From assembly GCA_035304185.1 (NCBI GenBank), contig DATGQN010000114.1, positions 1 to 22,578 of the forward strand: a stretch of DNA of 22,578 nt. Direction: 5' to 3'. Shown piece by piece: positions 1,119-18,020 of the stretch. Origin of the DNA: Myxococcaceae bacterium. GTDB lineage: Bacteria > Myxococcota > Myxococcia > Myxococcales > Myxococcaceae. The translations under genes were made by a program, and so were the position numbers. The first letter of the stretch is position 1, and each line of letters opens with the position of its first letter. Under the pieces are notes generated by a model. That model made no database searches. It saw nothing but the letters and a program-made list of their open reading frames with translations, and was not told the origin of the DNA.

Positions 1119-1223
1119 GGGGCGCGTACCCTACTCAGGGATGTTGGCCGGCCGCCACGACTCAAGCGCCCCTCCGGCCCCGCCGTTGCCGCCAGCGGGG
1201 AGCGTGGACAGCGTGCCCGCGGC
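1119..1223. promoter_or_regulatory. 105-bp divergent intergenic region between the ACE-like gene and the AI-2E transporter gene
   Basis: Positional only. The AI-2E start is uncertain, so the region may be larger. Confidence 0.25.
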
Positions 1224-2438: not shown

Positions 2439-2573
2439 AGGCCGTCGGCAGCAGTCCCCGGAAGGCGCCCAGAAATATTCAGACGCGCGGCAGATCCAAA
2501 CGCGGAGGGAGTGCGTTCGAGCAGCCACCTCAACGCTCCCGCTCCCGGGACCTCACCCTCGAGGGTCTGCCGC

Positions 2574-4391
2574 ATGAACGTCCAAACCTCCCGCGCGCTG
2601 CTCGCCGCGTGCGTCCTGTTGATCGGCACCGCCTGCCACCGCAGCTCCCATTCTCCCTCCGAGCCCGCCGCGATGCAGGGCAACGACGACACGCCGGGCG
2701 TCACCGTGGAGGCGCTGGTCGTCCGCGATGTCCGGGAAGTGCCTGCGGAGCCGGCTCGCCCCGCGCCGGCCCCTCCTCCTGCCGCCGAGCTCAGGGAGGA
2801 GTCGCGGCGCAGCCGGGATTCGCTGGTCTCCCGGGCTTCAGAGAAGCTGCGGAACCTGATGGGAGCCGGCGCCAGCGTCCAGTCACTCTCCGGCACCGAT
2901 GGCCCCTCCCTCTCCCTGTCGGCGGCGCGGCCGGCCCATTCGTTCGAGCAGGAGGCGAAGCGGTCCGCGCTGCCGCCGGCCAGGGATGGCAATCGCTTCC
3001 AGGGGATGGAGCCCAACCCCTACGTGCGCACCGCCGACGATGCGCTCTCGACCTTCGCCATCGACGTGGACACCGCGAGCTACTCGGTGAGCCGGCGCTA
3101 CCTGATGCAGGGAGCCCTTCCGCCGGCGGACGCGGTGCGGGTGGAGGAGTTTCTCAACGCCTTCACCTACCGCTACCCCGCGCCCCGGCGTGAGCCCTTC
3201 TCCGTGCACCTCGAGGGCGCGCCCTCTCCGCTCACCTCCGGCCGCACCCTCCTGAAGGTGGGCGTTCAGGGACGCCAGGTCTCCCGCGCGGATCGCAAGC
3301 CGGCCAACCTGGTCTTCCTCGTGGACACCAGCGGTTCCATGAACCATCCGGACAAGCTCCCGCTCGCCATCGATGCCCTCAAGCTCCTGGTGAAGAACCT
3401 CAACGAGCACGACACCATCGCCCTCACCACGTACGCCGGCTCGACCCGGGATGTGCTGCCTCCCACCCCCGCCACCGAGTACACCCGCATCTACCGGGCG
3501 CTCGATTCGCTGAGGTCGGGTGGCGGAACGGCGATGGGGGCGGGGCTCACCACCGCCTACGCCCATGCGCTCAAGGGCGCCGGCAGCGGACGCAACTCGC
3601 GGGTCATCGTGCTCACCGATGGCGACGCGAACCTGGGTCGCAACCTCACCCCGGACGCGATGCTGGAGAGCGTGAAGGCGGGTGTCGAGGAGGGCGTTAC
3701 CCTCACCACCATCGGCCTGGGGATGGGCAACTACCGCGATGATCTGCTCGAGCGCCTCGCCAACCGCGGCAACGGCAATGCCTTCTACATCGACAGCATG
3801 AAGGAGGCCCGGCGGGTGTTCGAGACGCGGCTGGCCGGCACCCTCGAGGTCATCGCCAAGGACGTGAAGATCCAGGTCGAGTTCAACCCGAAGGCCGTGT
3901 CCGGGTACCGGCTGCTCGGCTACGAGAACCGTGACATCGCCGACGAAGACTTCCGCGACGACAAGGTCGACGCCGGCGAGATCGGCGCGGGCCACAGCGT
4001 GACCGCCCTCTACGAGGTCGCGCTCACCGGTAAGGACGACACCCTCGCCACCGTCCGCGTGCGCGCCAAGGCGCCGACCGGCACCCGCGCGACCGAGTCC
4101 GCCTTCACCTTCGGACGTGACCGCCTCTCCAGCACGCTCGAGGGTGCCTCCCCGGACCTCCGCTTCGCCGCCGCCGTGGCCATGACCGCCGAGGTGCTCC
4201 GCCGCGCCCCCGACTCCGAGTCCATCTCCCTCGAGCGGGCACACCGCCTGGCCAAGGGAAGCATCCAGCGCGACGAGGACCGTGCGGAGTTCGTCAAGCT
4301 GCTCGAGTCCGTGCAGCAGCTGAGCTCGCGCGTCGCGCGGAGCCCCTCGCCCGCGCCGCGTCACGCCCCGATGCCGGAGCACGCCTACTGA
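2574..4391 (+). CDS. von Willebrand factor type A (vWA/MIDAS) domain lipoprotein, YfbK-like (vWA_N2 + vWA + DUF3520-like C-terminus)
   Basis: Start taken at ATG 2574 (MNVQTSRALLAACVLLIGTAC, signal peptide with Cys lipobox); the track ORF begins upstream at 2511. N-terminal block NPYVRTADDALSTFAIDVDTASYSVSRRYL...VEEFLNAFTYRYP. vWA fold with MIDAS motif LVFLVDTSGSMN...TAL...GGGTAMGAGL...VIVLTDGDANLG. C-terminal VKIQVEFNPKAVSGYRLLGYENRDIADEDFRDDKVDAGEIGAGHSVTALYEV matches the YfbK-family tail as I recall it. Confidence 0.8.
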   Translation: MNVQTSRALLAACVLLIGTACHRSSHSPSEPAAMQGNDDTPGVTVEALVVRDVREVPAEPARPAPAPPPAAELREESRRSRDSLVSRASEKLRNLMGAGASVQSLSGTDGPSLSLSAARPAHSFEQEAKRSALPPARDGNRFQGMEPNPYVRTADDALSTFAIDVDTASYSVSRRYLMQGALPPADAVRVEEFLNAFTYRYPAPRREPFSVHLEGAPSPLTSGRTLLKVGVQGRQVSRADRKPANLVFLVDTSGSMNHPDKLPLAIDALKLLVKNLNEHDTIALTTYAGSTRDVLPPTPATEYTRIYRALDSLRSGGGTAMGAGLTTAYAHALKGAGSGRNSRVIVLTDGDANLGRNLTPDAMLESVKAGVEEGVTLTTIGLGMGNYRDDLLERLANRGNGNAFYIDSMKEARRVFETRLAGTLEVIAKDVKIQVEFNPKAVSGYRLLGYENRDIADEDFRDDKVDAGEIGAGHSVTALYEVALTGKDDTLATVRVRAKAPTGTRATESAFTFGRDRLSSTLEGASPDLRFAAAVAMTAEVLRRAPDSESISLERAHRLAKGSIQRDEDRAEFVKLLESVQQLSSRVARSPSPAPRHAPMPEHAY

Positions 4392-4501: not shown

Positions 4502-7500
4502 TCAGGCGGGAGGGCGGATCCCGCGCAGGAGCTCGAGGGCTTCACTCACCTGCTTCCACACCTGCATGGCGCGCACATACCCCTCGCCCTCCTTCAGGTG
4601 CGAGCGGGCCAGACGCGCGAGCGGAACCAGCATCCCCTCGAGCAGGACGAGCTGGCGGGCGACGTCGTCGGGCACCATCACCAGCGGCGGGGCTCCACTT
4701 CCCGCGGCGGCCGGTACCGCCATGGGCATGGGACCGGAATCCACGGGCGCCGGGCGGGACACCGCATCCACCGTGCTCTGCTGCGCGGGGCGACTGGCCA
4801 GGATTTCGAGCACCCGTCCCAGCTGCTCCAGGTAGGGAGCGAGATCGGGCGCCGATGCCGCCTCGGCCTTCTCGCGCTTGGGAAGGGGCGGCGGACGCTG
4901 CTGCTGCTTTCCGAGGTCGGCGGCCACGTTGACCAACTGCTGAAGCGACTGCTCGAGCGTGTTGAGCCGCGGCTCGATGAGGCCCCAGGTCGGGCCCGGT
5001 CCGGACGGCGTGGTCTCGGGCTGGCTTCGGGCCTCGGCCGCGGTGCGCGCCGCCTCCAGGATGCCGGTGCGGATCCCGGTGAGCTGCTCGCCGACTTCCG
5101 AGAGTTCGGCGGTGACGCGGGTGACCGGATCATCGTCGGAGCCCCCCTGGCGCACCACGCGCGCGAAGCCCCGCTTGAGCTCGTCCCAGCGCGCCTTCTC
5201 CTCGGCAGAGAGCCGGCCGCGAAGCTCACCGAGCTTGAGGAGGTTGCCCTCGGCGCCGGTGGTGAGGGTCTGAGACTCGCCGCGGTAGTGATCGTCGATG
5301 AGCTCCTCGAGCTCCGCGTCGGTCATCGCCGAGACCACCTTGGAGGCCAGCCGCGACATGTTGCGGTAGCTGCCCTGCAGCTTGAAGGGGGGCTCGGTGC
5401 GGAAGCGATCGTCCTGCGCCGCCGAGGCGATGTAGGCCGCGTTCACCTTGCCCAGGGTCTGCTGGACCTTGAGCAGCCGCTGCAGCACCGCGACCATCTC
5501 CTGGACCTCGACCGCCGACCAGCTGCCCTCGAGCGCGTTGGCGCTCTCCTCCCGCCCCTGCGCAATCCGGATGAGCAGCTGGGTGTCCTTGCGATCCCGG
5601 AGGGCCAACGGTGCCAGGACCTCGTTGGAGGTCAGCGCGTTCTCCACGAAGGAGAGGGCGAAGAGCTCCTCGCGCCCATTGAGGATGTCACCCAGGTTGT
5701 AGGTGTCGGCGCGGTTGGCGAGCATGTCCGGGATGCGGAAGCGCTCGCCGGTCTCGTTGTAGGGGTTGCCCGCCATGACCACGGCGAACTTCTTGCCCCG
5801 CAGATCGTAGGTCCGCGTGCGGCCGTTCCAGACGCCCTCGATGCGGCGCTGCCCGTCGCAGAGGCTGATGAACTTCTGGAGCAGCTCCGGATCGGTGTGC
5901 TGCACGTCGTCCAGGTAGAGCATCACGTTGTTGGCCATCTCGAAGGCCAGGTTGATGCGCTCCACCTCCTGCCGCGCGGTGGCGTTGGGCGCCTCGCTCG
6001 GATCCAGGGACTTCACCGCGTGCCCCAGCGCCGGCCCGTTCACCTTCACGAAGGCGAGGCCCAGGCGGCTGGCCACGTACTCCATCAGGGTCGTCTTGCC
6101 GTAGCCCGGCGGGCTCATGAGCAGCAGAAGGCCCTGCCGATCGGTGCGCTTGTTCTCGCCCACCGTTCCCAGCTGCTTGGCGAGGTTGTCGCCGATGAGG
6201 GGCAGGTAGACCTCGTCGATGAGCCGGTTGCGCACGAAGGTGCTGAGCACCTTGGGCTGCAGCTCGTCGAGCCGGAAGCGCCGCCGCTCGCGCTCGATGA
6301 GCTCGCGCAGGGCCTTGCGGTAGGCGTGGAAGGCCGGGACCTCGACGTGGCGGAAGTGCCCGATGCGCTCGAGGAAGGCGTCCAAGCGCAGGTCCAGCTT
6401 CCCCTCCCGGATGCGCGGATGGCTTCCGAGCAGCCCGGAGACCTCGCCGGCGATCAGGGCGCTCGCGCTCACCCGATCCAGCTGGGCACCGGTGAGCAGC
6501 ATGACCGCCGCCTCGTCCAGGGCGTGCGCCCGTGCCCCGGCGTCCGCGTCGGTCCTCACCAGGCCGGAGAGCCAGGCGCGCATCAGCCCCAGACGCTCAG
6601 GGAGCCGCTTCTCGAGCGCCCGCAGATCCTCCTCGAAGACCGACCGGGTCCCCCGCGCATCGAGCAGCGCCATCAGCCGGTCGCAGAGCCACTCGGCGTC
6701 CGCGCTGCTGGTGAAGCGTGGATGCTCGGCGGTCAGCTCCTCACTGAGGTAGCGCCCCGCGACCCGGGTGACGCCCGGGGCATGCGGGATGCGGTGGGCG
6801 TCGAGGAAGGCCGCGATGCGCTCGGCGAGCTCATCTCCCAGCTCGAGCAGCGCGGGGGCCTGCTGGAAGACCGTCCGGAGGCGGCCCAGCGATCGCGCGC
6901 GGCTGTGCAGCTGATCCCGCTCGCCGGCATCCTCGAGGAAGGCCCAGTAGAGACAGGCGAAGGCCCGAGGCGTGGGCGCGTGGCGCAGCAACCCCGCGCC
7001 GTCATGGAGCGCGAGCAGCTTGCCCAGGATGACGCTCGCGTCGACGTCGTGAACGCCCCGCTCGTAGCCCTCCTCGTAGCGATCGGCGGCGACCTTGCGC
7101 ACCAGCCCGAGCAGCCCGTCCGGCGCCAGTGCCGCCTCGTGGAGCGCCGGGACCGAGAGACCGTTCTGCTGCTCCTCGGCGTCGAAGAGGATGCTCCCCG
7201 CCAGGTACTCCGCCCGGTAGACCTCCGGCGACTCCGAGACCAGGTGCTGATCGAAGCGCGAGGTGTGCTTCAGGATCTCCGGATCGGTGATGGGCTCCGA
7301 GAAGTCGGTTCCCAGGATGTTGAGGGACAGGCCGCCATCACGGGGGAGCACCGTGAGTTCCAGCGCCTGGGTGCTCACGCTGAAGCGGTGCGTCCCGAGC
7401 CGCAGGACGTTCTCGCCCCCCTCGAAGATCTCCGCGCGATCGCGCAGGCCTCGCAGCCCGTCCTGGCGCGCGGTCTTCAGCCGACCTTCGAGCTCGTCCC

Positions 7501-9985
7501 CGCGGACCGGATCGCCCAGCTCGACGAGCTGCTTGGCCATCTCGCGCAGCTTGAAGACCATCGCGTCGGTGGCGAAGTAGGCGTTGAGCGCGTCCTCGTC
7601 GGAGAAGCCCTGCGCCCGGCGCAACACGCCCTGCAGGATCCGCTCGGCGGCGGTGAAGAGGTTCTGCGCGCGGCGGTGTCGCTCGTCGAGCAGGGCCTGC
7701 TTGCGCGCACCGAAGGCCTCGTAGAGCTCCTCGCGGCGCTCCTGGAGCTGCTCCAGGAAGCCGTCGAACTCGCTGAAGCGCCCTTCGAGTTCCTCGAGCT
7801 GCACGGTCAGCCGGCCCAGGGACTCGTCGCAGTCCTCGGGCGTCTCCACCCGCGCGAGCGCGCTCTCCATGGCCTGGCCCAGCAGCCGGAACTGGGCGCT
7901 GAACTCGACCTTCTTCTCACTGCCCAGCAGTTCCCGCCGCCGCGCGGTGAGCGTCGCTCGGACGCGGTTGACCGTTCCGAACAGCTCGCCGATGCCCTCG
8001 AGGATGGTTGCGCGTGCAACCGGGTCACCGACCTGGAGGCCGGAGACCACCTCGGAGAGGACGTCCAGCCCGCGCGAGGTCTCCTCCAGCTGCTCGACCA
8101 GCGGCTCCATCTCGAGCGTGGTGGTGGCGGGGCCCGCGCGCTCGAGCAGGCTCTCGAGCTGCTGGGCCAGGGGGCGCAGCGCCTTGTCGTCGCGCAGGAA
8201 CGTGACGCAGCCCTCACTCACCTCGTCGGTGGTGCGGGCGATCTCCTGCTCCATCGCCTCGAGGCGTGCGCGGTCGATGTGGCGCAGTTCCTTGAGGGTG
8301 ATGAGGTGGCCGCGGTGGTTGCGCAGCTGCTCGAGCGCACGCATGAACTCCTCTGCGGTGGAGAGGTGCTCGGCGCGTGCATCCCGGAGGATCTCGAGCT
8401 GGGTCGCCTCGGCCTTGGTGAGCGCCTCCTCGGCGCGACGGCGGAGCGCGAGGACCTTCTCGTACTCATCGATGATGAGCTCGGCCGAACGCCGCAGCGC
8501 CTGCATCGGCTCGGACAGGCCGATCTCCTCGTGCCCCAGCCAGTGGTAGGCGTCCGCGGCCCGGGTCACGCCGGCGATCAGATCCTCGAAGGTCCGCCGG
8601 TTGGGCTCCTGCGCATTGGCCACCCGCCGAAGTGTCAGGGCCTCGGAGATGCCGCGGACGAGCTCCGCGTTGCCGATCTTGCCCAGGAAGCCCGGGACGG
8701 GAGGCGCCTGGGCGGCAAACTCCATGGAGACGAAGGGCGTCTGCCAGATCTGGATCGGATGCACCCGGGTGGGCTCGGTCAGGGTGCTGCGGAAGATCGC
8801 CATCCGGCCGTCGGCGAAGAGGCTGTAGCCGTGGCATTGGATGGGGGTCTGCATCTCCTTGCGCACGATGTTGTAGGGGAAGAGGACGTAATCCCCCTTC
8901 TCACGCGCGTGGAAGACGTAGAGGACGTCCTCGCCGTTGGGGCTTCGGAGGACGCGCTCGTACTCGAGGTCGGGGGGCTGTCCCTCGAAGCGCTTGAAGT
9001 CCCCGGTCTGGAGGTAATAGCCGCCGGGGAAGACCAGCCCCTGATCCTCCGGGAGCTGGATGCAGGCGTGCCCGATCTCGTCGACACGGGCCACCTGCTC
9101 GGTGCGGGTGTTGAAGACGAGGTAGCGCCAGGTCTCCTCCCGATAGGGGAGGATCTTCAGCAGGATGAGCGAGCCCACCCGCGCGTACTGAATGGTCGCG
9201 TCGTCGAGCGATTGATCCGGCGAGTCCACCGGTTCGCTGTAGATGCCCTGCCCTTCCTCGGTGTTGTTCTCGATCTTGACGGTGAGGTCACCCTTCACCG
9301 TGTCCACGAAGATCGTGTCGAGGATGTTGACGTGGGGGTGCTCGCCCGTGACGAAGTTCTCACGGGTGGCGGTCGTCCACTCGAAGTCGTGGCTGCGCGG
9401 GAAGACGTATTCGCGCTCGCCCCGGTTGTCGACGTAGGTGACCGCCCCGTCGGTGCCGATGTTGAAGCGGAAGACCCGGACGTCGGTCTGGCGCTCGCCG
9501 GTCTGGAAGACGGCGATGAAGCCGCCCTCGGTGCGCCGCAGCTGCAGGAGCTTGGCGCCCTTGTAGTAGCGGAAGAGCTCGGTGAAGTCCTTGACGAAGC
9601 GGGGGTCGGAGAGGAACGCCCCGCCCTCGGAGGCGGGGACGGGATCGACGTCGAACCCATCCTCCCGCTCCTCGAAGCGATGGAGGCTGAAGACGTCCGC
9701 GACCGTCGTCTCCTGGCGCAGTCCCAGGAAGACGTCGAAGCCGAAGAGCAGATGCGGCCCGACCGCGATGATGTCGCGGGGCAGGCAGTTGTTCTCCGTC
9801 CGCGCGCGCTCGTTGCCGATGACGCTGAGCTCGGTGCCACCGAAGAGCTCCTTGCGCCGTTCGTTGAGCGCCTCCGCCTTCTCCCCCACGGCCAGGGCCT
9901 GGGAGAGGAGGCGTGCACGGATCACCTCATAGCTGCCGCCCTCGGGTCCTTCGACCTGGGCGGCGGCCTTCGCTTCGTTCGTCAT
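4502..9985 (-). CDS. giant (1827 aa) multidomain protein with one dynein/MoxR-type AAA_5 P-loop ATPase module near residues ~1280-1440. It has an N-terminal ~470-aa beta-rich globular region, a ~750-aa alpha-helical/coiled-coil middle, and a Pro-rich C-terminal tail. No TM segments or signal peptide. Function unknown.
   Basis: Single uninterrupted minus-strand ORF. Walker A LLLLMSPPGYGKTTLMEYV (K codon at 6097..6095). Walker B NNVMLYLDDVQHTD. Sensor-like FAVVMAGNPYNETGERFRIPDMLANRADTYNL, the AAA_5 pattern (h-h-a-t-NP ... R..D..L.NR). Amino-acid composition is diverse, not just GC-driven; the antisense 1866-aa + ORF is G/A/R/L/P/E/V low-complexity. Only 25 bp separate its ATG from the flotillin stop. 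My unverified recollection is that similar ~1700-1800-aa proteins are annotated in databases as 'DNA repair ATPase-like' (DUF3686 plus AAA) with no experimental function. Confidence 0.75.
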   Translation of the reverse strand: MTNEAKAAAQVEGPEGGSYEVIRARLLSQALAVGEKAEALNERRKELFGGTELSVIGNERARTENNCLPRDIIAVGPHLLFGFDVFLGLRQETTVADVFSLHRFEEREDGFDVDPVPASEGGAFLSDPRFVKDFTELFRYYKGAKLLQLRRTEGGFIAVFQTGERQTDVRVFRFNIGTDGAVTYVDNRGEREYVFPRSHDFEWTTATRENFVTGEHPHVNILDTIFVDTVKGDLTVKIENNTEEGQGIYSEPVDSPDQSLDDATIQYARVGSLILLKILPYREETWRYLVFNTRTEQVARVDEIGHACIQLPEDQGLVFPGGYYLQTGDFKRFEGQPPDLEYERVLRSPNGEDVLYVFHAREKGDYVLFPYNIVRKEMQTPIQCHGYSLFADGRMAIFRSTLTEPTRVHPIQIWQTPFVSMEFAAQAPPVPGFLGKIGNAELVRGISEALTLRRVANAQEPNRRTFEDLIAGVTRAADAYHWLGHEEIGLSEPMQALRRSAELIIDEYEKVLALRRRAEEALTKAEATQLEILRDARAEHLSTAEEFMRALEQLRNHRGHLITLKELRHIDRARLEAMEQEIARTTDEVSEGCVTFLRDDKALRPLAQQLESLLERAGPATTTLEMEPLVEQLEETSRGLDVLSEVVSGLQVGDPVARATILEGIGELFGTVNRVRATLTARRRELLGSEKKVEFSAQFRLLGQAMESALARVETPEDCDESLGRLTVQLEELEGRFSEFDGFLEQLQERREELYEAFGARKQALLDERHRRAQNLFTAAERILQGVLRRAQGFSDEDALNAYFATDAMVFKLREMAKQLVELGDPVRGDELEGRLKTARQDGLRGLRDRAEIFEGGENVLRLGTHRFSVSTQALELTVLPRDGGLSLNILGTDFSEPITDPEILKHTSRFDQHLVSESPEVYRAEYLAGSILFDAEEQQNGLSVPALHEAALAPDGLLGLVRKVAADRYEEGYERGVHDVDASVILGKLLALHDGAGLLRHAPTPRAFACLYWAFLEDAGERDQLHSRARSLGRLRTVFQQAPALLELGDELAERIAAFLDAHRIPHAPGVTRVAGRYLSEELTAEHPRFTSSADAEWLCDRLMALLDARGTRSVFEEDLRALEKRLPERLGLMRAWLSGLVRTDADAGARAHALDEAAVMLLTGAQLDRVSASALIAGEVSGLLGSHPRIREGKLDLRLDAFLERIGHFRHVEVPAFHAYRKALRELIERERRRFRLDELQPKVLSTFVRNRLIDEVYLPLIGDNLAKQLGTVGENKRTDRQGLLLLMSPPGYGKTTLMEYVASRLGLAFVKVNGPALGHAVKSLDPSEAPNATARQEVERINLAFEMANNVMLYLDDVQHTDPELLQKFISLCDGQRRIEGVWNGRTRTYDLRGKKFAVVMAGNPYNETGERFRIPDMLANRADTYNLGDILNGREELFALSFVENALTSNEVLAPLALRDRKDTQLLIRIAQGREESANALEGSWSAVEVQEMVAVLQRLLKVQQTLGKVNAAYIASAAQDDRFRTEPPFKLQGSYRNMSRLASKVVSAMTDAELEELIDDHYRGESQTLTTGAEGNLLKLGELRGRLSAEEKARWDELKRGFARVVRQGGSDDDPVTRVTAELSEVGEQLTGIRTGILEAARTAAEARSQPETTPSGPGPTWGLIEPRLNTLEQSLQQLVNVAADLGKQQQRPPPLPKREKAEAASAPDLAPYLEQLGRVLEILASRPAQQSTVDAVSRPAPVDSGPMPMAVPAAAGSGAPPLVMVPDDVARQLVLLEGMLVPLARLARSHLKEGEGYVRAMQVWKQVSEALELLRGIRPPA
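5665..6150 (-). other. AAA_5-type ATPase core (Walker A, Walker B, sensor/arginine region) inside the giant gene
   Basis: GYGKT P-loop at ~6110..6095, LYLDD at ~5920..5905, VVMAGNPY...FRIPDMLANR at ~5800..5720 (forward coordinates of minus-strand codons). Confidence 0.7.
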
Positions 9986-10010
9986 CTTGGACGCCGGCCT
10001 CTTGGGTCAG

Positions 10011-12095
10011 TCAGTCTTTGGATTCGGGCTTGGTGACCTTGGCGGTCCGGGCCAGGAGCGCCGCGGCGGCCAGGTTCTGAACGTCCTGGGTCGCGCCGGG
10101 CTTGCTGAGCACCTCCTTGAGGTCCTCGGCCAGGTCCTTGCTGCCATCCAGGTAGTTCTTGAAGAAGCCCTGCAGCTTCTCGCTGGAGTCGATGGCCGCA
10201 TCCACGCCGGTCCCGAAGGACAGGGAGCGGACGAAGCGCTCGAAGAACTCGCCGTCGCCGCCGACGATCTTGAAGTCGGCATTGGCGAGCGCCTTTCCGA
10301 GCACCTCGGCCTGGGCGAGCGCCACGCTCTGGCGCACGTTGATCTCCGCCAGCGCGACCTCCTTCTCCTTCTCGATCTGGAGGCGGAACTCCTCGTGCTC
10401 GCGGCCGACCCCGTCCAGGGCCTTCATGGACTCGGCCTTCTCGGCCAGACCGCGGGCCTCGGCGATGAGGCGCTCCTGGATCGCCTGGGCCTCGGCCTCG
10501 CCGCGCTTCTGGATGGCAAGCGCCTCGGCCTCCTGCACGCGGATGGCGGCCAGCCCCTTCTGCTCGGTGCCGGTGGCTTCGGCGACCATCTGCTCGCGGA
10601 CCACCGCGGCCTGCGCGATGCCCTGCTTCTCGATCGCGGCGGCGTCGGCCTCGCGGACGCGCACGGACGCCATGCCCTGCTTCTCCTGGGCAAGCGCCTC
10701 GGCCTCGAGCACGCGCGCCCGGGCGAGGCCTTCGGCAGCGGCTTCGGCCTGGGTGCCCTCGGCGATGCGGACCTTGGACTTGGCGATGCGGTCGGCAGCC
10801 TCCAGCTCGACGTCGGCCAGGGTCAGCCGCTCGCGGGCGGTGAACTTGGCGACCTCGGCGGCGACCTCGGCGGCCTTCATCTCCTTGACCAGGCGCTCCT
10901 GGGCCTCGGCCTCGGCGGCGATCACGCGCGCGTCCTTGCCTCGGGTCGCCTCGGCGACCACGCGCAGATCCTTGATGGCCTCCTCCTCCTGCGCCACGGT
11001 CTTCTCGACGACGATGCGGGTGCGGATGACGTCGGCGATGGCCTTCTTCTCGGCCTCAATCGCCTTCTCCTTCTCGATCCGGCGCAGCTCGACCTCGCGC
11101 TCGCGGAGCAGGGCCTCGAGCTGCTGATCCTTGGTGACCCGCTCGGTCTCCACCAGGACCACGCGCTCGCGGTTCTTCTGCGCCACCTCGATCTGGCGCA
11201 GCTTGTTCTGTTCGTTGACGAAGATCTCCTCCTCGGCGCGGATGCGGGCCATCTCGGCGCGCGCGTGCTCCTCCTGCCGCACGAGCTCCGCCTGGGCGTG
11301 CTCACGGGCGCGGATGGTGGCGATCTCCCGCTGCTGCTCCTCCTCCGCCTTGGCGCGCTGGCGCTCGAGGGCGAAGACCGCCTCGTCGGCCTCGACGCGG
11401 CGCTTGGTGATCAGCATGCGCTCGTTCTGGCGCAGGTCCTCGGTGGCGATGTTCTCCACCGTGGTGATCTGGGTGATCTTCTTGATGCCGACCGAGTCGA
11501 GGACGTTGCTCGGATCGAGCACCTCGAGCGGGGTCTGCTCCAGGAAGTCGATGGCCACGTCTTCGAGGGTGTAGCCGTTGAGGTCCTGGCCGATGACCTT
11601 GACGATCTCGTCCTTGAACTCCTGGCGCATCGTGTAGAGCGCCTCGAAGTCCATCTGCTTGCCGACCGTCTTGAGCGCCTCGGAGAACTTGGCCTCGAAG
11701 AGCTCCTTGAGGGTCAGCTCATCCGACGCGCGCTCACAGCCGATGGCCTGCGCCACCTTGAGCACGTCCTCGCGGGTGCGGTTCACGCGGACGAAGAAGG
11801 CCACCTTGATGTCCGCGCGGATGTTGTCGCGACAGATGAGGCCTTCCTTGCCCCGACGATCGATGTCGACCGTCTTGAGCGACATGTCCATGACTTCGGC
11901 GCGGTGGATGATGGGCAGCACCACGCCGCCGGTGAACGTGACCACCGGCTCGCTCTTGAGCGTGTTGATGATGAGCACGTGGCCCTGCTCCACCTGTCGG
12001 TAGAAGCGGGCGACCATCATGCCCAGGCCACCGAGCACCACCGTGCCGCCGCCGGCGATGGTGCCGTAGAGAATCAGATCGTCCATTGGAGGCAT
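10011..12095 (-). CDS. flotillin-like SPFH/band-7 protein (YqiK/FloT-like) with an N-terminal membrane anchor and a very long EA-rich coiled-coil
   Basis: 694 aa. N-terminal hydrophobic segment LILYGTIAGGGTVVLGGLGMMVARFY. SPFH core ...GHVLIINTLKSEPVVTFTGGVVLPIIHRAEVMDMSLKTVDIDRRGKEGLICRDNIRADIKVAFFVRVNRTREDVLKVAQ... A ~350-aa Glu/Ala/Arg/Gln-rich heptad region follows (AEEEQQREIATIRAREHAQAELVRQEEHARAEMARIRAEEE...), typical of bacterial flotillins. AGGA sits 6 nt upstream of the ATG. Confidence 0.85.
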   Translation of the reverse strand: MPPMDDLILYGTIAGGGTVVLGGLGMMVARFYRQVEQGHVLIINTLKSEPVVTFTGGVVLPIIHRAEVMDMSLKTVDIDRRGKEGLICRDNIRADIKVAFFVRVNRTREDVLKVAQAIGCERASDELTLKELFEAKFSEALKTVGKQMDFEALYTMRQEFKDEIVKVIGQDLNGYTLEDVAIDFLEQTPLEVLDPSNVLDSVGIKKITQITTVENIATEDLRQNERMLITKRRVEADEAVFALERQRAKAEEEQQREIATIRAREHAQAELVRQEEHARAEMARIRAEEEIFVNEQNKLRQIEVAQKNRERVVLVETERVTKDQQLEALLREREVELRRIEKEKAIEAEKKAIADVIRTRIVVEKTVAQEEEAIKDLRVVAEATRGKDARVIAAEAEAQERLVKEMKAAEVAAEVAKFTARERLTLADVELEAADRIAKSKVRIAEGTQAEAAAEGLARARVLEAEALAQEKQGMASVRVREADAAAIEKQGIAQAAVVREQMVAEATGTEQKGLAAIRVQEAEALAIQKRGEAEAQAIQERLIAEARGLAEKAESMKALDGVGREHEEFRLQIEKEKEVALAEINVRQSVALAQAEVLGKALANADFKIVGGDGEFFERFVRSLSFGTGVDAAIDSSEKLQGFFKNYLDGSKDLAEDLKEVLSKPGATQDVQNLAAAALLARTAKVTKPESKD
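10440..10760 (-). repeat. periodic ~54-66-nt coding repeats (E-K/Q-Q/K-G-x-A... units) in the flotillin EA-rich coiled-coil region
   Basis: Recurring gccctgcttctc (10621 and 10675) and cagccccttctgctc / cgcgcttctggatggc motifs. Protein units EAEALAQEKQGMASVRVR / EADAAAIEKQGIAQAAVVR / EQMVAEATGTEQKGLAAIRVQ / EAEALAIQKRGEAEAQAIQ. Confidence 0.55.
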
Positions 12096-12197
12096 TGCGT
12101 CCTTCGCTTTGGGGTCGTGCAGTTGCTGAGCGGGTGGTTGCAGAGCGCCCGATCGCCGCCGTCAGCAGATCGGCGAGTCGGGCGGAAGAGAAGAGAT

Positions 12198-13043
12198 CTA
12201 GGAGGCCCGTTCCTTGGCGCGGGCGAGCGCCGCGGCGCGGGAGGGATCGTCCAGCGCAGAGAGTTCCTCGGGCAGCAGCCAGTCCACCGGCTCCACCTCG
12301 TACACCTCGCGGGCGGGATCGAACTCCAGGATCAGGGCGCGGTCTCCGCGCTTGAGGGTGTTGGCCCTGGCGCACACCACGTGGAGCCGCAGGCCCGCGC
12401 CGCCGTCCTCGAGGATGGCCTGTCCGTGCCGGCCGTCCACCGAGCCGCTGTCGATGACGCAGACCCGGCCGAGGAGCGTGTTGCGGGTGGGCGCATGCTT
12501 GAACTTGAAGAAGGGTCGCAGCGGCTTGATGGCGAGCGCCGAGAGGCCCACGCCCAGCGCGCCCCCGCCGACGAACACCCCGCCCTTGAGGATCGGGCTG
12601 GGGAAGACGTCGGGGAGCGCGGGTCCGAGCCAGTGCATCCCGAGGAGGGTCGAGGCCCAGCCGATGAAGATCAGCAGGGAGAGCGCGATGGTGACCGGAA
12701 CCCCGCCGAGGCCGAGCACATCCAGCAACCCGTGCCCCTCGGCCCCCAGCGCTTCGGACTTTCCGGCGAGGGCCTCCGCCTTCCCCGCGAGGGCCTCCGC
12801 CTTGCCGGCAATCGCCTCCCCTGCCCCGTCCAGCCCATCACCGATCGCGCCCAGCGCCTCGGCCTTGCCGGAGAGGGCTTCCGCCGCCCCATCCCCGTCC
12901 AGGGCGTCCAGCCCCACCTGGCCCAGAATCACCGCGAGCCAGTAAAGGAACACCATCCCCATCAGCAGCGAGAACGGAAGAACCGGAAAGGTCAGGGCGA
13001 GGTTGAGGAGGTGCTCCATGGGCAGCGGCGCAGCATAGTCCAC
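12198..13043 (-). CDS. NfeD-like / YqiJ-like membrane protein (N-terminal TM helices plus C-terminal OB-fold NfeD domain), the usual flotillin partner
   Basis: N-terminal TM helices (LNLALTFPVLPFSLLMGMVFLYWLAVILG...; GVPVTIALSLLIFIGWASTLLGMHWLG). C-terminal NTLLGRVCVIDSGSVDGRHGQAILEDGGAGLRLHVVCARANTLKRGDRALILEFDPAREVYEVEPVD fits the NfeD beta-barrel pattern (G.v.v.d..v.G....a.ir..G...........i..G..V.V). Sits immediately upstream of flotillin on the same strand, the YqiJ-YqiK arrangement. Start is ambiguous: GTG 13043 or ATG 13019. Confidence 0.7.
   Translation of the reverse strand: MDYAAPLPMEHLLNLALTFPVLPFSLLMGMVFLYWLAVILGQVGLDALDGDGAAEALSGKAEALGAIGDGLDGAGEAIAGKAEALAGKAEALAGKSEALGAEGHGLLDVLGLGGVPVTIALSLLIFIGWASTLLGMHWLGPALPDVFPSPILKGGVFVGGGALGVGLSALAIKPLRPFFKFKHAPTRNTLLGRVCVIDSGSVDGRHGQAILEDGGAGLRLHVVCARANTLKRGDRALILEFDPAREVYEVEPVDWLLPEELSALDDPSRAAALARAKERAS
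12744..12890 (-). repeat. in-frame 21-nt tandem repeat (~3 perfect or near-perfect copies plus degenerate flanking copies) encoding AGKAEAL heptads in the NfeD-like gene
   Basis: Forward strand 12765-12827 reads cggcgagggcctccgccttcc / ccgcgagggcctccgccttgc / cggcaatcgcctcccctgccc, with a related copy at 12861-12888. Protein: ...AIAGKAEALAGKAEALAGKSEALGAEG..., sitting between the TM region and the OB-fold domain. Confidence 0.7.
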
Positions 13044-13210
13044 TGGGCGTCAGATTTTTCGACCGACCCGGCACGAAACCCGGTCTCCCTGTCGGATAGC
13101 GAGCAGGCGGAGATGCCTGGGGCCGCCAAAGCCCTTCCCACACCCCTTGTTGCGGCGGGAGCCCTTCCCGGCTCAGCGCGATCGCCACGCGAGAGGGACG
13201 TCGGCCGCCC
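13044..13210 (-). promoter_or_regulatory. 167-bp gap upstream of the NfeD-flotillin-ATPase cluster, candidate promoter region (no consensus identified)
   Basis: This is the only sizeable non-coding gap on the minus strand between the lipoprotein gene and the NfeD-like gene. Downstream junctions are 102 bp and 25 bp, consistent with co-transcription. Confidence 0.3.
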
Positions 13211-13948
13211 TCAGCGCGCGTCAAAGGCCAGGGAGACCGCGCCTTGGGGCTCGCCGGTGTTGGCGTCGACCCGCTCGAAGGAGAATCGGACCGACTGGGC
13301 CTGGGGAGGGAGGACGGGGAAGTAGATGAAGCCGTCCACCACGCCCCCTTCCTCGAGGACGCCTTCGGGCACCGCATGGACCAGCATGTCGCGGGTGGGG
13401 AGCTCCACCGGCCAGGCAGGAGGCGCCCACGACCAGGTTCCGCCATAGCCCCAGGGGCCGTACCAGCGGGGGATCCCCGGATAGTACCGGCGGTAGCCGG
13501 GGGCCACGTAGAAGCCGTGGGAGCGCATGGGGTGCCCGTACCAACCGAAGCTGCCGCCCATGGCGGGGCCGGCGTCGCTCCACGTCCGCACCCACGCCTG
13601 TCCCCGGATGTCGAGCGGCGGGACCGCGGCCATCACCATGCCTCCCTGCACGGCCAGCGTGAACGCGTCATAGGTGATGCGCAGGGGGATGCCGCTCTGG
13701 TTCTCGATCCGCACCCGCATCGGGATGGCGACCCCGAGATCGCGGGGGAAGGCCCGCCAGGCGTCGGCATCGGCGATCACCCGGACCCCGTCGGCCTCTC
13801 CGACGACGGCCGACGGGACGCCAGCCACCACCGTTTCGCCTTCGGCCGGCACCAGCGGCGGGGTGGTGGCGCAGGCCGACAGCAGGGCCATGGCTCCCAG
13901 AGCCGACCACCAGACATCACGCCGCTGCTGCCTGACCTCCGTCTTCAT
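13211..13948 (-). CDS. hypothetical lipoprotein with a Trp/Tyr/Gly/Pro-rich segment
   Basis: MKTEVRQQRRDVWWSALGAMALLSAC: signal peptide with lipobox LLSAC. Realistic composition. Aromatic-rich block YRRYYPGIPRWYGPWGYGGTWSWAPPAWP. No family recognised. Same strand as the NfeD-flotillin-ATPase cluster and 167 bp upstream of it. Confidence 0.55.
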   Translation of the reverse strand: MKTEVRQQRRDVWWSALGAMALLSACATTPPLVPAEGETVVAGVPSAVVGEADGVRVIADADAWRAFPRDLGVAIPMRVRIENQSGIPLRITYDAFTLAVQGGMVMAAVPPLDIRGQAWVRTWSDAGPAMGGSFGWYGHPMRSHGFYVAPGYRRYYPGIPRWYGPWGYGGTWSWAPPAWPVELPTRDMLVHAVPEGVLEEGGVVDGFIYFPVLPPQAQSVRFSFERVDANTGEPQGAVSLAFDAR

Positions 13949-14299
13949 CCTCGCTCCGCGTCGGGCCGGGCGTGCCCGTCCAAGACTTGAAGCTAGGTGG
14001 CGGACGTCTCAGAGGGGACCTTCCCGCCTCCGGGCAACCGCTGCCTCATGCCCCTTCGTCCGCTCCCCCGGGCAGAGGGCCTTCGGCTCTTTCCCTGGCG
14101 CGCACGACTTTCGCGTAATGAACGTTTAGGGCGTTCTGCTGCGACGAGACGTCGACAGGCCTTACGGCAGGCGGGCAGGCTTTCAGCCCGGTGGCCGACA
14201 CTGTCCGGAAGGGCAGTGTGCGTGCGGACGGGTCGGAGCGGGACCCGTTTCGGGCGCTTCGCGGCCCGGGCAGAGCGCGCGCAGGGCTGGAGGGGAGCC
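13949..14299. promoter_or_regulatory. 351-bp divergent intergenic region (lipoprotein gene <-> STAS-like gene) containing several inverted repeats
   Basis: GAACG-N7-CGTTC at 14120-14136. ACACTG-N10-CAGTGT at 14198-14219. Hairpin CGGGTC-N7-GACCCG followed by TTT at 14229-14250. SD GGAGGGGAG at 14288-14296. No convincing sigma70 or sigma54 consensus. Confidence 0.35.
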
Positions 14300-14716
14300 A
14301 TGAGGAACATCTTCGACGACGAGCACGTGACGGTGACCCTGGAGAACGGGTGCCTGCACCTGGGCTGGACGAAGGACGTGGTGGACGGTCCTGAAGCGGT
14401 CGAGCTGGCCCGCCGGCTGACGGAGGCCCTGGGCCGGGTGGTGCGCGAGGCGCCGCCCAAGTCCATGACCATGTTGGTCGACCTGATGGTGATCCAGAAG
14501 CCGGCCCCCAAGGCGAACGCGGTCTTCCTGGAGTGGCTCCGTCGGGACTGGCGCTCCTTCCGCGCCACCGCCTTCGCGTCGCGCAACACCCTGCTCCGCT
14601 CCACCATCAAGGTGGCCAGCCTCCTCCCCGGCATCCACGTCGCCGGCTTTGCCACGGTCGAGGAGGCCCGGGCCCATCTGGAGAAGCAGGTCGTGCTGGA
14701 GCCGGTTGCGGGCTGA
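14300..14716 (+). CDS. small cytoplasmic protein, possibly STAS/SpoIIAA-like fold (138 aa)
   Basis: ATG 14300 is preceded by GGAGGGGAG 4-12 nt upstream (strong SD). The in-frame upstream part of the track ORF (13997..14299) is Arg-rich junk. The alternating beta/alpha pattern HVTVTLENGCLHLGW...AVELARRLTEAL...MLVDLMVI...IHVAGFATVEEARAHL resembles anti-sigma-antagonist/STAS domains. Assignment is tentative. Confidence 0.5.
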   Translation: MRNIFDDEHVTVTLENGCLHLGWTKDVVDGPEAVELARRLTEALGRVVREAPPKSMTMLVDLMVIQKPAPKANAVFLEWLRRDWRSFRATAFASRNTLLRSTIKVASLLPGIHVAGFATVEEARAHLEKQVVLEPVAG

Positions 14717-14737
14717 TCGCCGCGGCCGCTGACGGCA

Positions 14738-14757
14738 AGGGGCCCCCGCGGCCCCTG
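14738..14757. terminator. GC-rich hairpin between convergent genes (possible bidirectional terminator)
   Basis: aagGGGCCcccgcGGCCCctg: 6-bp perfect G/C stem with a 5-nt loop, located between the STAS-like stop (14716) and the htrA stop (14786). No U-tract, which is common in high-GC genomes. Confidence 0.35.
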
Positions 14758-14785
14758 CCCCATTCAGCGTTGCCGGCCCCTCACC

Positions 14786-16228
14786 TCAGGGCATCTGGAG
14801 TGCGCGGATCGCCCCGCCCCGTCCGGAGGCGACGACCAGCAGCACCATCTGTCCCGAGCGGGCGGACTGCAGGACCTGGCGCAGGGCCTCGGCCGACTGC
14901 ACCCGCCGGCCCCCGGCCTCGATGATCAACATGCCCGGGCGGAGATCGGCGTAGGCGGCGGGAGACTCGGGTTCCACCTCGGTGATGATGGCGCCGGGCA
15001 GGCGACGACCACCGGCGCGGGGGGCGGCGTCCTCGAAGGACAGTCCCAGCTGCGCGAGGGGATCCGCGTTGCGTGCAGGAATGCCGATGCCCTCGAAGTC
15101 CGGGCGCTCCCCGAGCTCCACCTTGAGGTCACGCGTCTTCCCGTCCCGCTCGACGGTGAGGGTGACGGTGCGGCCCGGCGGCATGAGACCGATGCGCTGG
15201 GTGAGCATGCGCGCATCCCTCAAGGCCGCGCCATCGAGGGCGATCACCACGTCCTTGGCTCTCAGTCCTGCCGCCTCACCGGGGCTCCCCTCCCCCACCT
15301 CGGCGACCAGCGCGCCATCCTCCCGCGCGATCCCCAGGGCCTTCGCGATGGGGCTGGTGACGTCGGTCATGGAGACACCGATCCAACCGCGGCGGACCAC
15401 GCCCTGTTCGAGCTGCGGCATGAGCTCCCGGGCCATGTTGCTGGGGACCGCGAAGCCGATGCCCGAGGCGCCGCCGACGATGGCGGTGTTGATGCCGATC
15501 ACCTCACCGGCGAGGTTGAAGAGCGGGCCGCCCGAGTTGCCGGGGTTGATGGCCGCGTCGGTCTGCAGGAAGTCGTCATAGGGGCCGCTCTGGATGTCGC
15601 GGGAGCGCGCCGAGAGGATCCCGGCACTCACGCTGGAGGCGAGGCCGAACGGATTGCCGACCGCCACCACCCAGTCGCCGACGTTGAGCGCACGCGAGTC
15701 GCCGAACTGCACCGTGGGGAGCGGCTCCTTCACCCCCTCGAGCTGGAGCAGCGCCAGATCGGTCAGAGGATCGCGCCCCACGACCTTGGCAGCGAAGGAT
15801 CGCCCGTCATCGAGGCGCACGCGGATGGCGACCGCGCCCTCGATGACGTGGTTGTTGGTCATGACCTTGCCGTCGGCCTCCACGATGAAGCCGGAGCCCG
15901 CGCTCTGCTCGAGCTGTGGCGCCTGGGGACCGAAGAAGCGCTCGTAGGGGGACATGGGGCGGCGACGGCCGCCACTGCGCACCTGCACGTCGACGTTGAC
16001 GACCGCGCCCTTCACCCGCTCCACCAGCGGCGCGAACGAGGTCGGCGCCCCCATGGGCACAATGGGCTCCGGCGAAGGCGGAGGGGGCTCTTCGCGGACC
16101 CGGACCGGCGTGGGAGCCTCCGCGGGCTGGGGCTCGGGCACCTCCTGCTTGCACGCGGTGACGGTCACGATCGCCACCAGCAGCGAGGTCAATCCATGGG
16201 TGAGGGAGCGGGGATGTCGCGCGCGCAT
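14786..16228 (-). CDS. htrA: DegP/HtrA-family periplasmic serine endoprotease lipoprotein with two PDZ domains
   Basis: Signal peptide with VTVTAC lipobox. Trypsin-like core with catalytic His (MTNNHVIEGA), Asp (DLALLQL) and Ser (GNSGGPLFNLAGEVIGINTAI). Two C-terminal PDZ-like segments (GWIGVSMTDV..., GAIITEVEPESPAAYADLRPGMLIIEAGGRRV). Confidence 0.9.
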   Translation of the reverse strand: MRARHPRSLTHGLTSLLVAIVTVTACKQEVPEPQPAEAPTPVRVREEPPPPSPEPIVPMGAPTSFAPLVERVKGAVVNVDVQVRSGGRRRPMSPYERFFGPQAPQLEQSAGSGFIVEADGKVMTNNHVIEGAVAIRVRLDDGRSFAAKVVGRDPLTDLALLQLEGVKEPLPTVQFGDSRALNVGDWVVAVGNPFGLASSVSAGILSARSRDIQSGPYDDFLQTDAAINPGNSGGPLFNLAGEVIGINTAIVGGASGIGFAVPSNMARELMPQLEQGVVRRGWIGVSMTDVTSPIAKALGIAREDGALVAEVGEGSPGEAAGLRAKDVVIALDGAALRDARMLTQRIGLMPPGRTVTLTVERDGKTRDLKVELGERPDFEGIGIPARNADPLAQLGLSFEDAAPRAGGRRLPGAIITEVEPESPAAYADLRPGMLIIEAGGRRVQSAEALRQVLQSARSGQMVLLVVASGRGGAIRALQMP

Positions 16229-16273: not shown

Positions 16274-17899
16274 TCAGCTGGCGCGGAGGCCCGGCGCCTC
16301 CCGGCCGGTGCTGGCGACATACTCGGAGTAGCCGCCGCCGTAGGGACGCACTTCGTCCCCGTTGATTTCCAGGACGCGGTTGGACAGCGCGCCGAGGAAG
16401 TGCCGGTCGTGGGAGACGAAGAGCATGGTCCCCTCATAACCGGCGAGCGCGTCGATCAGCATCCTCTTGGTGGCCATGTCCAGGTGGTTGGTGGGCTCGT
16501 CGAGCACCAGGAAATTCGGGGGATCGAAGAGGAGCTGCGCCATCACCAGGCGCGCCTTCTCGCCGCCGGAGAGGACCCGGCACTTCTTCTCCACCTCATC
16601 GCCCGAGAATCCGAAGCAGCCGGCCAGCACCCGCAGCGCGCCGGTGTTCGCGCGGGGGAAGGCGTGCTCCAGGGACTCGAAGACGGTCTGGTTGCCGTCC
16701 AGCAGATCCATGGCGTGCTGGGCGAAGTAGCCCATCTTCACGGCGCTGCCGAGGCTCACCTGCCCCTTGTCGGGCTCGGTGTGACCGGCCACCAGCTTGA
16801 GCAGGGTCGACTTGCCCGCGCCGTTCGCGCCGAGCACGCACCAGCGCTCGCCGCGGCGCACCAGCAGATCGAAATCCGTGTAAATGCGCCGGCTGCCGTA
16901 GGCCTTGCTCACGCCCGACAGGCGCACCACGTCGTCGCCCGATCGCGGTGAGGGGGCGAACTCGAAGTCCACCTTCTGATGGCGCTTGGGGGGCTGCACG
17001 CGCTCGATCTTCTCGAGCTTCTTCACCCGGCTCTGCACCTGCGAGGAGTGGGACGCGCGGGCCTTGAAGCGCTCGATGAACTTGAGCTCCTTGGCGAGCA
17101 TGGCCTGCTGGCGCTCGTACTGGGCCTGCTGCTGCTGATCGTTCTGCGCGCGCTGCTGCTCGTAGAAGTCGTAGCCGCCCGAGTAGGTGGTGAGGCTGCC
17201 GCCGTCGATCTCGATGATCTTGGTGACGATGCGGTCCATGAACTCGCGGTCGTGGGAGGTCATGAGGACCGCGCCGTCGTAATCGCGCAGAAAGCCTTCC
17301 AGCCAGATGAGGGACTCGAGATCCAGGTGGTTGCTGGGCTCGTCGAGGAGCATGGCGTCGGGGCGCATGAGGAGGATGCGGGCCAGGGCCACGCGCATCT
17401 TCCAACCGCCGGAGAGGTTGCCGACGTCTCCGTCCATCATCTCCACGCTGAAGCCCAGGCCGCCGAGGATCTCCCGGGCGCGGCCTTCCAGCGCGTAACC
17501 GTCGAGCTCCTCGAAGCGGGCCTGCACCTCGCCGAAGCGGTTCACCAGCTTGTCGAGTTCGTCGGCGCGATCGGGATCGGCGAGGGCGAGCTCCAGCTCC
17601 TTGAGCTCCGCGGCCACCTGGCTCACCGGACCAGCGCCGTCCATGACCGCGGCGACCGCCGACTGGCCGGACATCTCGCCCACGTCCTGATCGAAGTAGC
17701 CGATGGTCACGCCCCGATCGATGGAGACCTGGCCTTCCTCGGGCTCCTCCTGGCCGGCGACGAGGCGGAAGAGGGTCGACTTGCCGGCGCCGTTCGGACC
17801 GACGAGGCCCACCTTCTCCCCGCGGTTGAGGGCGGCCGAGGCCTCGATGAAGAGGATCTGCTGTCCGTGCTGCTTGCCGATGTTGTCGAGGCGGATCAT
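16274..17899 (-). CDS. ABC-F family ATPase (two tandem ABC domains, no TM domain; EttA/YbiT-like translation factor or resistance protein)
   Basis: Start taken at MIRLDNIGKQ (ATG 17899; the track begins 14 codons upstream). First ABC domain: Walker A GLVGPNGAGKST, signature LSGGWKMRVALARIL, Walker B MLLDEPSNHLD. Inter-domain Q-rich linker. Second ABC domain: GANGAGKSTLLK, LSGGEKARLVMAQLL, LVLDEPTNHLD. Confidence 0.88.
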   Translation of the reverse strand: MIRLDNIGKQHGQQILFIEASAALNRGEKVGLVGPNGAGKSTLFRLVAGQEEPEEGQVSIDRGVTIGYFDQDVGEMSGQSAVAAVMDGAGPVSQVAAELKELELALADPDRADELDKLVNRFGEVQARFEELDGYALEGRAREILGGLGFSVEMMDGDVGNLSGGWKMRVALARILLMRPDAMLLDEPSNHLDLESLIWLEGFLRDYDGAVLMTSHDREFMDRIVTKIIEIDGGSLTTYSGGYDFYEQQRAQNDQQQQAQYERQQAMLAKELKFIERFKARASHSSQVQSRVKKLEKIERVQPPKRHQKVDFEFAPSPRSGDDVVRLSGVSKAYGSRRIYTDFDLLVRRGERWCVLGANGAGKSTLLKLVAGHTEPDKGQVSLGSAVKMGYFAQHAMDLLDGNQTVFESLEHAFPRANTGALRVLAGCFGFSGDEVEKKCRVLSGGEKARLVMAQLLFDPPNFLVLDEPTNHLDMATKRMLIDALAGYEGTMLFVSHDRHFLGALSNRVLEINGDEVRPYGGGYSEYVASTGREAPGLRAS

Positions 17900-18020
17900 G
17901 GGCGCGGTATATGCCAGCCCCCGTCCGCCTCGCCCGCCCAAATCCCGAGAAAATGAGCGTCGGAATGCGGGCGCATGGGTGGCTGCTCGCGCTCCGCGGG
18001 AAGAGGCGTGCTAGAGCGCG
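17900..18020. promoter_or_regulatory. 121-bp divergent promoter region between the ABC-F gene (minus) and the dprE1-like gene (plus)
   Basis: Intergenic position only; no consensus motif recognised. Confidence 0.3.

Follow-up and report, generated by a model that had tools for sequence, protein, structure and literature searches.

A giant AAA+ ATPase gene adjoins a YqiJ/YqiK-type pair of membrane protein and flotillin genes in a three-gene unit conserved from Myxococcaceae to other phyla

Here we describe a gene cluster on the minus strand of a 22,578-nucleotide (nt) stretch of DNA from a Myxococcaceae bacterium (contig DATGQN010000114.1 of assembly GCA_035304185.1; the whole stretch is hereafter called the window), in which a small YqiJ-like membrane protein, a YqiK-type flotillin and a giant ATPase are encoded one after the other. 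Judging from gene order in related genomes, the YqiJ-like, flotillin and ATPase genes make up a real and conserved operon-like unit that is three genes wide. Furthermore, the locus in the window is, by its predicted proteins, an abbreviated instance, lacking PspA, of a gene neighbourhood that has already been recorded in the literature.

A scan of one genome per species returned at least 585 loci that encode a relative of the ATPase, 80 of which were fetched for comparison. Two of these (L021 and L079) begin at the ATPase gene and contain no upstream DNA, which leaves 78 informative loci. In tblastn searches with the window proteins, 77 of the 78 carried a flotillin gene directly upstream of the ATPase gene and in the same orientation, and the arrangement of these two genes is therefore far beyond chance. 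The preliminary description of this DNA, made from the letters alone, had suggested that the adjacency of ATPase and flotillin be checked across genomes, and the outcome of that check is thus strongly positive. The single exception among the informative loci is a Sorangium locus (L011), and a second Sorangium locus that was fetched separately (L001) is also without a flotillin gene. In the latter, the gene upstream of the ATPase gene lies on the other strand and encodes a 979-amino-acid (aa) cysteine-rich repeat lipoprotein. An all-against-all clustering of flanking open reading frames (ORFs) returned three conserved families only, namely the ATPase, the flotillin (78 loci) and the YqiJ-like protein (75 loci). 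No fourth conserved gene emerged from this clustering of the 80 loci, the other flanking families being either shadow ORFs or restricted to particular lineages.

The loci range over Myxococcota, Actinomycetota, Gammaproteobacteria, Burkholderiales, Acidobacteriota, Planctomycetota and Eremiobacterota, and plasmid and chromid records extend the range to Deinococcota, Bacteroidota, Proteus, Vibrio and the Pseudomonas megaplasmid pQBR103, so that the module is spread over at least eight phyla. Within the Myxococcaceae its synteny is stable. If starts are read from the longest ORFs, the flotillin and ATPase genes are separated by a median gap of about 20 nt, and 14 actinobacterial loci have no gap, as the ATPase start there overlaps the flotillin stop by 4 nt. 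Moreover, the pairwise identities of ATPase and flotillin are tightly correlated (r = 0.95 over 65 loci). Taken at the level of sequence, these comparisons show three genes inherited as a unit across phyla, and often with what would be translational coupling.

Within the window, which has a G+C content of about 70%, four ORFs were confirmed in series on the minus strand. The preliminary description had given these four genes and the gaps between them, and its coordinates, strand and gap lengths proved exact (167 nt between the lipoprotein and YqiJ-like genes, then 102 and 25 nt). The genes and the two junctions inside the module are as follows.

13211..13948, minus strand: lipoprotein gene, 245 aa, lipobox LLSAC; a lineage-specific upstream neighbour outside the conserved module
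12198..13043, minus strand: YqiJ/NfeD-like small membrane protein, 281 aa
12096..12197, minus strand: junction of the YqiJ-like and flotillin genes, 102 nt, with GAAGGA 5 nt before the ATG
10011..12095, minus strand: YqiK-type flotillin, 694 aa
9986..10010, minus strand: junction of the flotillin and ATPase genes, 25 nt, with an AAGAGG Shine-Dalgarno-like motif
4502..9985, minus strand: giant ATPase, predicted soluble, database label 'DNA repair ATPase', 1827 aa

Inspection of the sequence revealed no terminator-like or promoter-like site in either the 25-nt or the 102-nt junction, and the former is too short to hold a terminator or a promoter. An ATG at 13019 within the YqiJ-like ORF coincides with the position at which homologues start, and possibly represents the true start of this gene. 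Since the homologues start there, the gap of 167 nt to the lipoprotein gene may in fact be 191 nt.

The lipoprotein itself does not share in the conservation of the other three. None of the 80 related loci contains a homologue of it, Pfam, NCBIfam and PADLOC have no match for it, and a copy at the same position (63% identical) was found only in the closest relative, the one whose ATPase is 76% identical. Because it is absent from the 80 loci and recurs only in that relative, we regard it as a local neighbour and not as a member of the module, and its earlier listing as the fourth gene of the cluster has to be withdrawn. The tblastn searches over the 80 loci ruled out both the lipoprotein and the DegP-like protease encoded further upstream as operon members.

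The identification of the small membrane protein and the flotillin required comparison at the level of families, for which alignments of both were built from the related loci and compared by hhalign with E. coli YqiJ and YqiK. The small-protein family matched YqiJ with a probability of 86.5% (E = 4.6e-6), in an alignment that spans two transmembrane helices and the C-terminal beta-rich block. On a Kyte-Doolittle scan the window protein has three hydrophobic segments (aa 12-48, 105-137 and 154-172), and a variable linker rich in Gly, Ala and acidic residues and a beta-rich C-terminal domain complete its layout. The flotillin family matched YqiK with a probability of 99.9% (E = 1e-32), the alignment covering the SPFH domain and the coiled coil. 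The window flotillin begins with a Gly-rich hydrophobic anchor, which is followed by the SPFH/Band-7 domain and a long Glu/Ala-rich coiled coil whose number of repeats is variable, and its C-terminal block is conserved (HEEFR ... IVGGDGxFF); identity across phyla is about 50%. Pfam had no match on the 281-aa window protein, and none on the 694-aa flotillin even at E-values up to 1, while NCBIfam FloT matched the latter weakly (E = 7e-7; 28.6 bits against a cut-off of 700). Among relatives, Pfam Band_7 was found in 4 of 24 members of the flotillin family (best E-value 2.3e-12), as well as in the closest orthologue, whereas the NfeD and YqiJ_N matches to the small-protein family were marginal, with PF01957 found in 1 of 23 members at E = 0.27. 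A sequence search against solved structures found no relative of the flotillin family. Based on the hhalign matches, the occurrence of Band_7 in relatives and the three hydrophobic segments, the two proteins are best classed as a divergent pair of the YqiJ/YqiK type. The labels NfeD and flotillin, assigned earlier, are accordingly supported by profile comparison with YqiJ and YqiK, but Pfam is blank on the window proteins themselves and PF01957 is not detectable there.

The third protein is by far the largest, and its parts can be listed from the N-terminus onwards.

aa 35-481, nt 8543..9883, minus strand: DUF3686 domain, beta-propeller-like, packed against N- and C-terminal helices (Pfam E = 2e-201)
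aa 482-1240, nt 6266..8542, minus strand: helical/coiled-coil middle of about 750 residues, rich in Glu, Leu and Arg
aa 601-685, nt 7931-8185, minus strand: DUF7902 (Pfam E = 8.6e-25)
aa 1241-1640, nt 5066..6265, minus strand: AAA+ module with helical C-terminal domains
aa 1287-1364: AAA (Pfam, 30.6 bits)
aa 1287-1415: AAA_5 (Pfam, 25.8 bits, cut-off 22)
aa 1294-1299, nt 6089-6106, minus strand: Walker A, GYGKTT
aa 1359-1360, nt 5906-5911, minus strand: Walker B, DD
N1407 and R1425: sensor-1 and a conserved arginine
aa 1641-1827, nt 4505..5065, minus strand: low-complexity Pro/Ala-rich tail (12% Pro, 14% Ala)

The core of the ATPase (aa 15-1640) is kept across phyla at a pairwise identity of at least 42%. 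Within it, residues 1251-1450 reach a column conservation of 84-89%, and conservation across homologues is at least 97% for both Walker motifs, N1407 and R1425; the catalytic motifs are intact. The Pro/Ala-rich tail is specific to Myxococcota and gapped in 53-73% of homologues; its last 50 residues or so are conserved within that phylum. A Kyte-Doolittle scan revealed no transmembrane-like segment in the protein, in agreement with what had been noted before, and we predict the ATPase to be soluble. In a structure model of residues 1181-1660 (pLDDT 84), the alpha/beta core of the AAA+ fold is complete, the sensor-1 strand is preceded by a beta-hairpin, and a helical lid and C-terminal domains are present. 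Foldseek ranked RuvB, Ycf2/FtsHi and NorQ together for this model (E-values around 1e-6), and the MoxR chaperones NorQ and CbbQ are among the closest folds. Because of this ranking, the modelled AAA+ module is placed nearest to the AAA_5/MoxR group, as proposed earlier and consistent with the AAA_5 score, without being a secure member of any MoxR subfamily. A sequence search against solved structures matched the generic P-loop only, and the middle region gave weak matches of the coiled-coil type to LmuB and JetC.

Relatives of the ATPase number more than 4,556, while the exact protein of the window had no entry in public assemblies. The best match, at 76% identity, lies on a metagenomic contig, followed by proteins of Hyalangium, Corallococcus and Myxococcus at 61-63%. 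DUF3686 forms only 767 clusters at 50% identity among 1.84 billion representatives, and most of its full-length members have about 1,600-1,950 residues. The family is compact, evolves slowly and has one architecture throughout.

The cluster had at first been put forward as undescribed. This did not stand: Ravi, Anantharaman, Aravind, Gennaro et al. (mSystems 2024, PMC11237479; preprint 2020) described the operon in silico. Their section on band-7 operons reports a CesT/Tir-PspA dyad combined with three further genes, which encode a band-7/flotillin protein, a YqiJ/YuaF protein with three transmembrane segments, and an ATPase whose AAA+ domain is fused to an N-terminal beta-propeller and a coiled coil. 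Some versions in Proteobacteria also carry a phospholipase D (PLD) gene. A wider distribution is stated for abbreviated operons, which consist only of the flotillin protein and YqiJ, in some cases together with the ATPase. A Dokdonia example with the order Tir, PspA, YqiJ, flotillin, ATPase is listed in their Table S3, and the role proposed for the operon lies in sub-membrane dynamics.

The features of that operon can be recognised one after the other in the window. The flotillin/SPFH protein is present, with its YqiK match and Band_7 in relatives, as is the three-transmembrane YqiJ/YuaF-type protein, with its three segments, its YqiJ match and an orthologue named DUF1449, and so is the AAA+ ATPase with N-terminal beta-propeller and coiled coil. 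The three protein architectures and their order are the same. In contrast, the form in the window is without the CesT/Tir-PspA dyad and without PLD; neither PspA nor Tir has a homologue there by tblastn or Pfam, which is why we call it abbreviated. It should be noted that the published account (PMC11237479) is purely computational and devotes one paragraph to the operon, giving no name, structure or experiment. In our own searches of the literature and of structures we found no experiment, solved structure or name for the operon either. Queries on DUF3686, PF12458, 'DNA repair ATPase' with flotillin, and MoxR with flotillin returned nothing relevant, and the same was true of SPFH with anti-phage and AAA+. 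Neither Hinderhofer 2009 nor the 2026 survey of P. aeruginosa SPFH proteins mentions the ATPase.

In some lineages the module is joined by further genes. On a Hymenobacter plasmid (L084) a divergent LexA-like gene is followed by Tir-chaperone, PspA, DUF1449, flotillin and ATPase genes, so that the triad stands behind Tir-chaperone and PspA just as in the published Dokdonia example. The ATPase and flotillin encoded there are 42-44% identical to those of the window and the YqiJ-like protein 26%, the latter carrying the NCBI name 'DUF1449 family protein'. The regulator at 574-1359 of this locus is of the LexA family (helix-turn-helix and peptidase) and lies divergently beside the Tir/PspA/YqiJ/flotillin/ATPase operon; the Dokdonia row in Table S3 of PMC11237479 has a matching 'cHTH+Protease' entry. 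This hints at control of the long operon form by an autoproteolytic repressor.

Five gammaproteobacterial loci have a rhomboid-family gene directly after the ATPase gene, and in three of the five a cytoplasmic PLD-like gene with a single HKD motif is next downstream. The PLD extension of the published operon (PMC11237479) thus recurs in these relatives, whereas a rhomboid is not mentioned there. The GASG serine motif and the histidine of the rhomboid are conserved, and the protease is apparently active. The rhomboid/PLD regions lie at the following positions.

L066: 15254-16633
L074: 15272-16524
L076: 14889-16454
L069: 15424-15939
L081: 7259-7792

In E. coli, a gene set of the yjfK/L/M/C type accompanies PspA (YjfJ). 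On pQBR103 (L083, 56-3110), DUF2491, DUF350, DUF1190 and a glutathionylspermidine-synthase-like gene stand directly upstream of the triad, and these are yjfKLMC-like, Psp-associated genes; the part of the megaplasmid that was fetched shows no PspA gene. Most of the optional extra genes (PspA, rhomboid, PLD, yjf) are membrane-related, with PLD/HKD ambiguous in function. As general partners of the module, PspA, Tir, yjfKLMC, rhomboid and PLD were all ruled out by their occurrence in subsets of loci only.

So what might a soluble ATPase do beside a membrane scaffold? SPFH-NfeD pairs form cage-like oligomers on membranes. By analogy, we think it somewhat probable that the three proteins constitute a sub-membrane machine for envelope stress, in which the flotillin/YqiJ scaffold docks the ATPase and the ATPase remodels either the scaffold or its clients. 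Speaking for it are the conserved linkage of the three genes, the largely membrane-related genes that join them in some lineages, and the MoxR-like fold and invariant motifs of the ATPase. At the cytoplasmic face of the inner membrane, flotillin and YqiJ protein would assemble a scaffold or cage, like other SPFH-NfeD pairs. The ATPase would oligomerise through its MoxR-like AAA+ ring and reach the scaffold with its long helical arms and beta-propeller, and ATP hydrolysis would drive the remodelling of either the scaffold or the membrane-protein clients within it. The system would serve in envelope stress or membrane maintenance, and could be coupled to PspA. SPFH cages are known to partner with AAA+ machines, as in HflK/C-FtsH and prohibitin-m-AAA, and QmcA-YbbJ is an SPFH-NfeD cage (PMC13086221). 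The earlier ideas of membrane remodelling or repair, and of the flotillin scaffold as an anchor, seem reasonable and match the proposal made in PMC11237479.

Several observations weigh against such a machine, however. In Sorangium the ATPase gene occurs without an adjoining flotillin/YqiJ pair (L001, L011), so the ATPase need not be encoded beside the pair. The loop after beta-2 of the AAA+ module has no aromatic pore-loop motif, so that threading of a substrate is not evident. Furthermore, tblastn found no PspA gene in the window or in the 80 genome loci, and the Psp link is drawn from a minority of genomes.

A more specific version of the envelope-stress machine, which we put forward tentatively and regard as possible but doubtful, would make the ATPase a dedicated ATP-driven factor for assembly and disassembly of the flotillin cage, the counterpart of Vps4 for SPFH scaffolds. 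Six helical arms tipped with beta-propellers would extend from the MoxR-like ring and take hold of the flotillin by its conserved C-terminal block, or of the YqiJ protein by its C-terminal domain. The cage would thereby be opened or recycled, and membrane clients released or extracted during envelope stress. We know of no SPFH scaffold at present that has a remodelling motor of its own.

Known systems share parts of this arrangement. In E. coli yqiJ-yqiK and B. subtilis yuaF-floT, a homologous pair of a small membrane protein followed by a flotillin is found, but E. coli yqiJK has no ATPase gene downstream. At 694 aa the window flotillin is also longer than YqiK (553 aa), to which it is 28% identical, and it has its own conserved C-terminal block. 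With HflK/C-FtsH and prohibitin-m-AAA, the module has in common an SPFH scaffold paired with an AAA+ machine at the membrane. FtsH, however, is a membrane-anchored protease of the classical AAA clade and is enclosed in the cage, whereas the ATPase of the window is predicted to be soluble and MoxR-like, without a protease domain and with a beta-propeller and long helical arms. PspA/ESCRT-III with Vps4-type ATPases offers the same concept of an ATPase that remodels a membrane-bound polymeric scaffold, and in some lineages the module is genomically linked to PspA; the scaffold here is instead SPFH, the ATPase belongs to an unrelated clade, and the window has no PspA gene.

The likeness to MoxR proteins leads to another explanation, in which the ATPase is a client-directed chaperone and the scaffold only a platform on which a membrane complex is matured, receives a cofactor or is disassembled. 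NorQ/NorD, CbbQ/CbbO and RavA/ViaA indeed act on specific client complexes. MoxR proteins such as NorQ, CbbQ and RavA have about 250-500 aa and work with VWA-domain partners, while the ATPase of the window has 1,827 aa, with some 1,240 extra residues at its N-terminus. It has the AAA_5 profile and the MoxR-like fold without a conserved VWA partner. The clustering of flanking ORFs revealed no conserved client gene or VWA partner near the module, and the VWA gene that the window does contain is convergent, carries a lipoprotein-type signal and occurs only in close relatives. With the flotillin and YqiJ-like genes as the sole universally linked ones, we hold a client chaperone to be unlikely.

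Less likely still is that the module is a mobile anti-phage or abortive-infection system, in which the scaffold senses infection and the ATPase, sometimes with a PLD/HKD nuclease-like effector, executes the response. HKD proteins can be nucleases, and a single-HKD PLD-like gene is present at three loci. Moreover, the neighbours are variable and the taxonomic distribution is patchy, including megaplasmids (pQBR103) and plasmids of Deinococcus, Hymenobacter and Streptomyces. Yet most versions are devoid of an effector domain, synteny is stable within the Myxococcaceae, no defence genes were seen in the annotated neighbourhoods inspected, and 50,697 phage records contain no homologue. PADLOC 2.0 gave no matches for three of the proteins, and for the ATPase only weak partial hits on its coiled coil or P-loop (E-values of 4e-4 or above). 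The conservation, at 42% identity or more across phyla and 767 clusters at 50% identity, is also unusually strong for a defence system. Hardly credible, finally, is a role as the DNA repair ATPase of the database name. NCBI and Pfam use this name, RuvB is among the Foldseek matches and the Hymenobacter locus has its divergent LexA-family regulator, but the similarity to RuvB is that of a generic P-loop (20 bits against an NCBIfam cut-off of 282). Pfam and structure-sequence searches revealed neither a DNA-binding or nuclease domain nor homology to a characterised repair ATPase. The label probably stems from a coiled-coil resemblance to SbcC/SMC proteins.

The remainder of the window holds genes with no part in the module. 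At 2511-4391 (plus strand) lies a VWA gene of the YfbK type with a lipoprotein-like signal, convergent with the ATPase gene. Among the loci, only Corallococcus (L003) and the closest relative (L086) have it at this position. This convergence looks like local synteny and not like a MoxR-VWA pairing, and as a MoxR partner the gene was ruled out, being convergent, exported and not conserved. A lipoprotein gene at about 1-1130 (minus strand) is cut off at the left end of the window, and its product, MRRLLLASLMLLGLSAC..., presumably resembles the M2 (ACE-like) peptidyl-dipeptidases. Between the module's neighbouring lipoprotein gene and the DegP gene, a pair of ORFs, one on each strand, overlap at 13993-14763; both have about 240-256 aa, and neither has a match in Pfam. 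An HtrA/DegP protease gene (14786-16228) and an ABC-F ATPase gene (16274-17941) then separate the module from a FAD_binding_4 oxidase gene followed by a short-chain dehydrogenase gene (18021-20104, plus strand), a pair that may resemble a DprE1/DprE2-like epimerase pair.

As such, the system to which the locus belongs is widespread, mislabelled and known only computationally, and the window adds no new category to it. The misleading name 'DNA repair ATPase' stands on thousands of database entries and is due for correction. The pairing of SPFH scaffolds with AAA+ machines would be extended to a soluble, MoxR-like motor. The function of bacterial flotillins is unsettled, and their deletion phenotypes are often mild (PMC13086221). 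A flotillin subfamily that is nearly inseparable from a conserved ATPase may provide an experimental handle on this question, and the module is present in tractable hosts, including Myxococcus, Streptomyces, Proteus mirabilis and the Pseudomonas fluorescens plasmid pQBR103.

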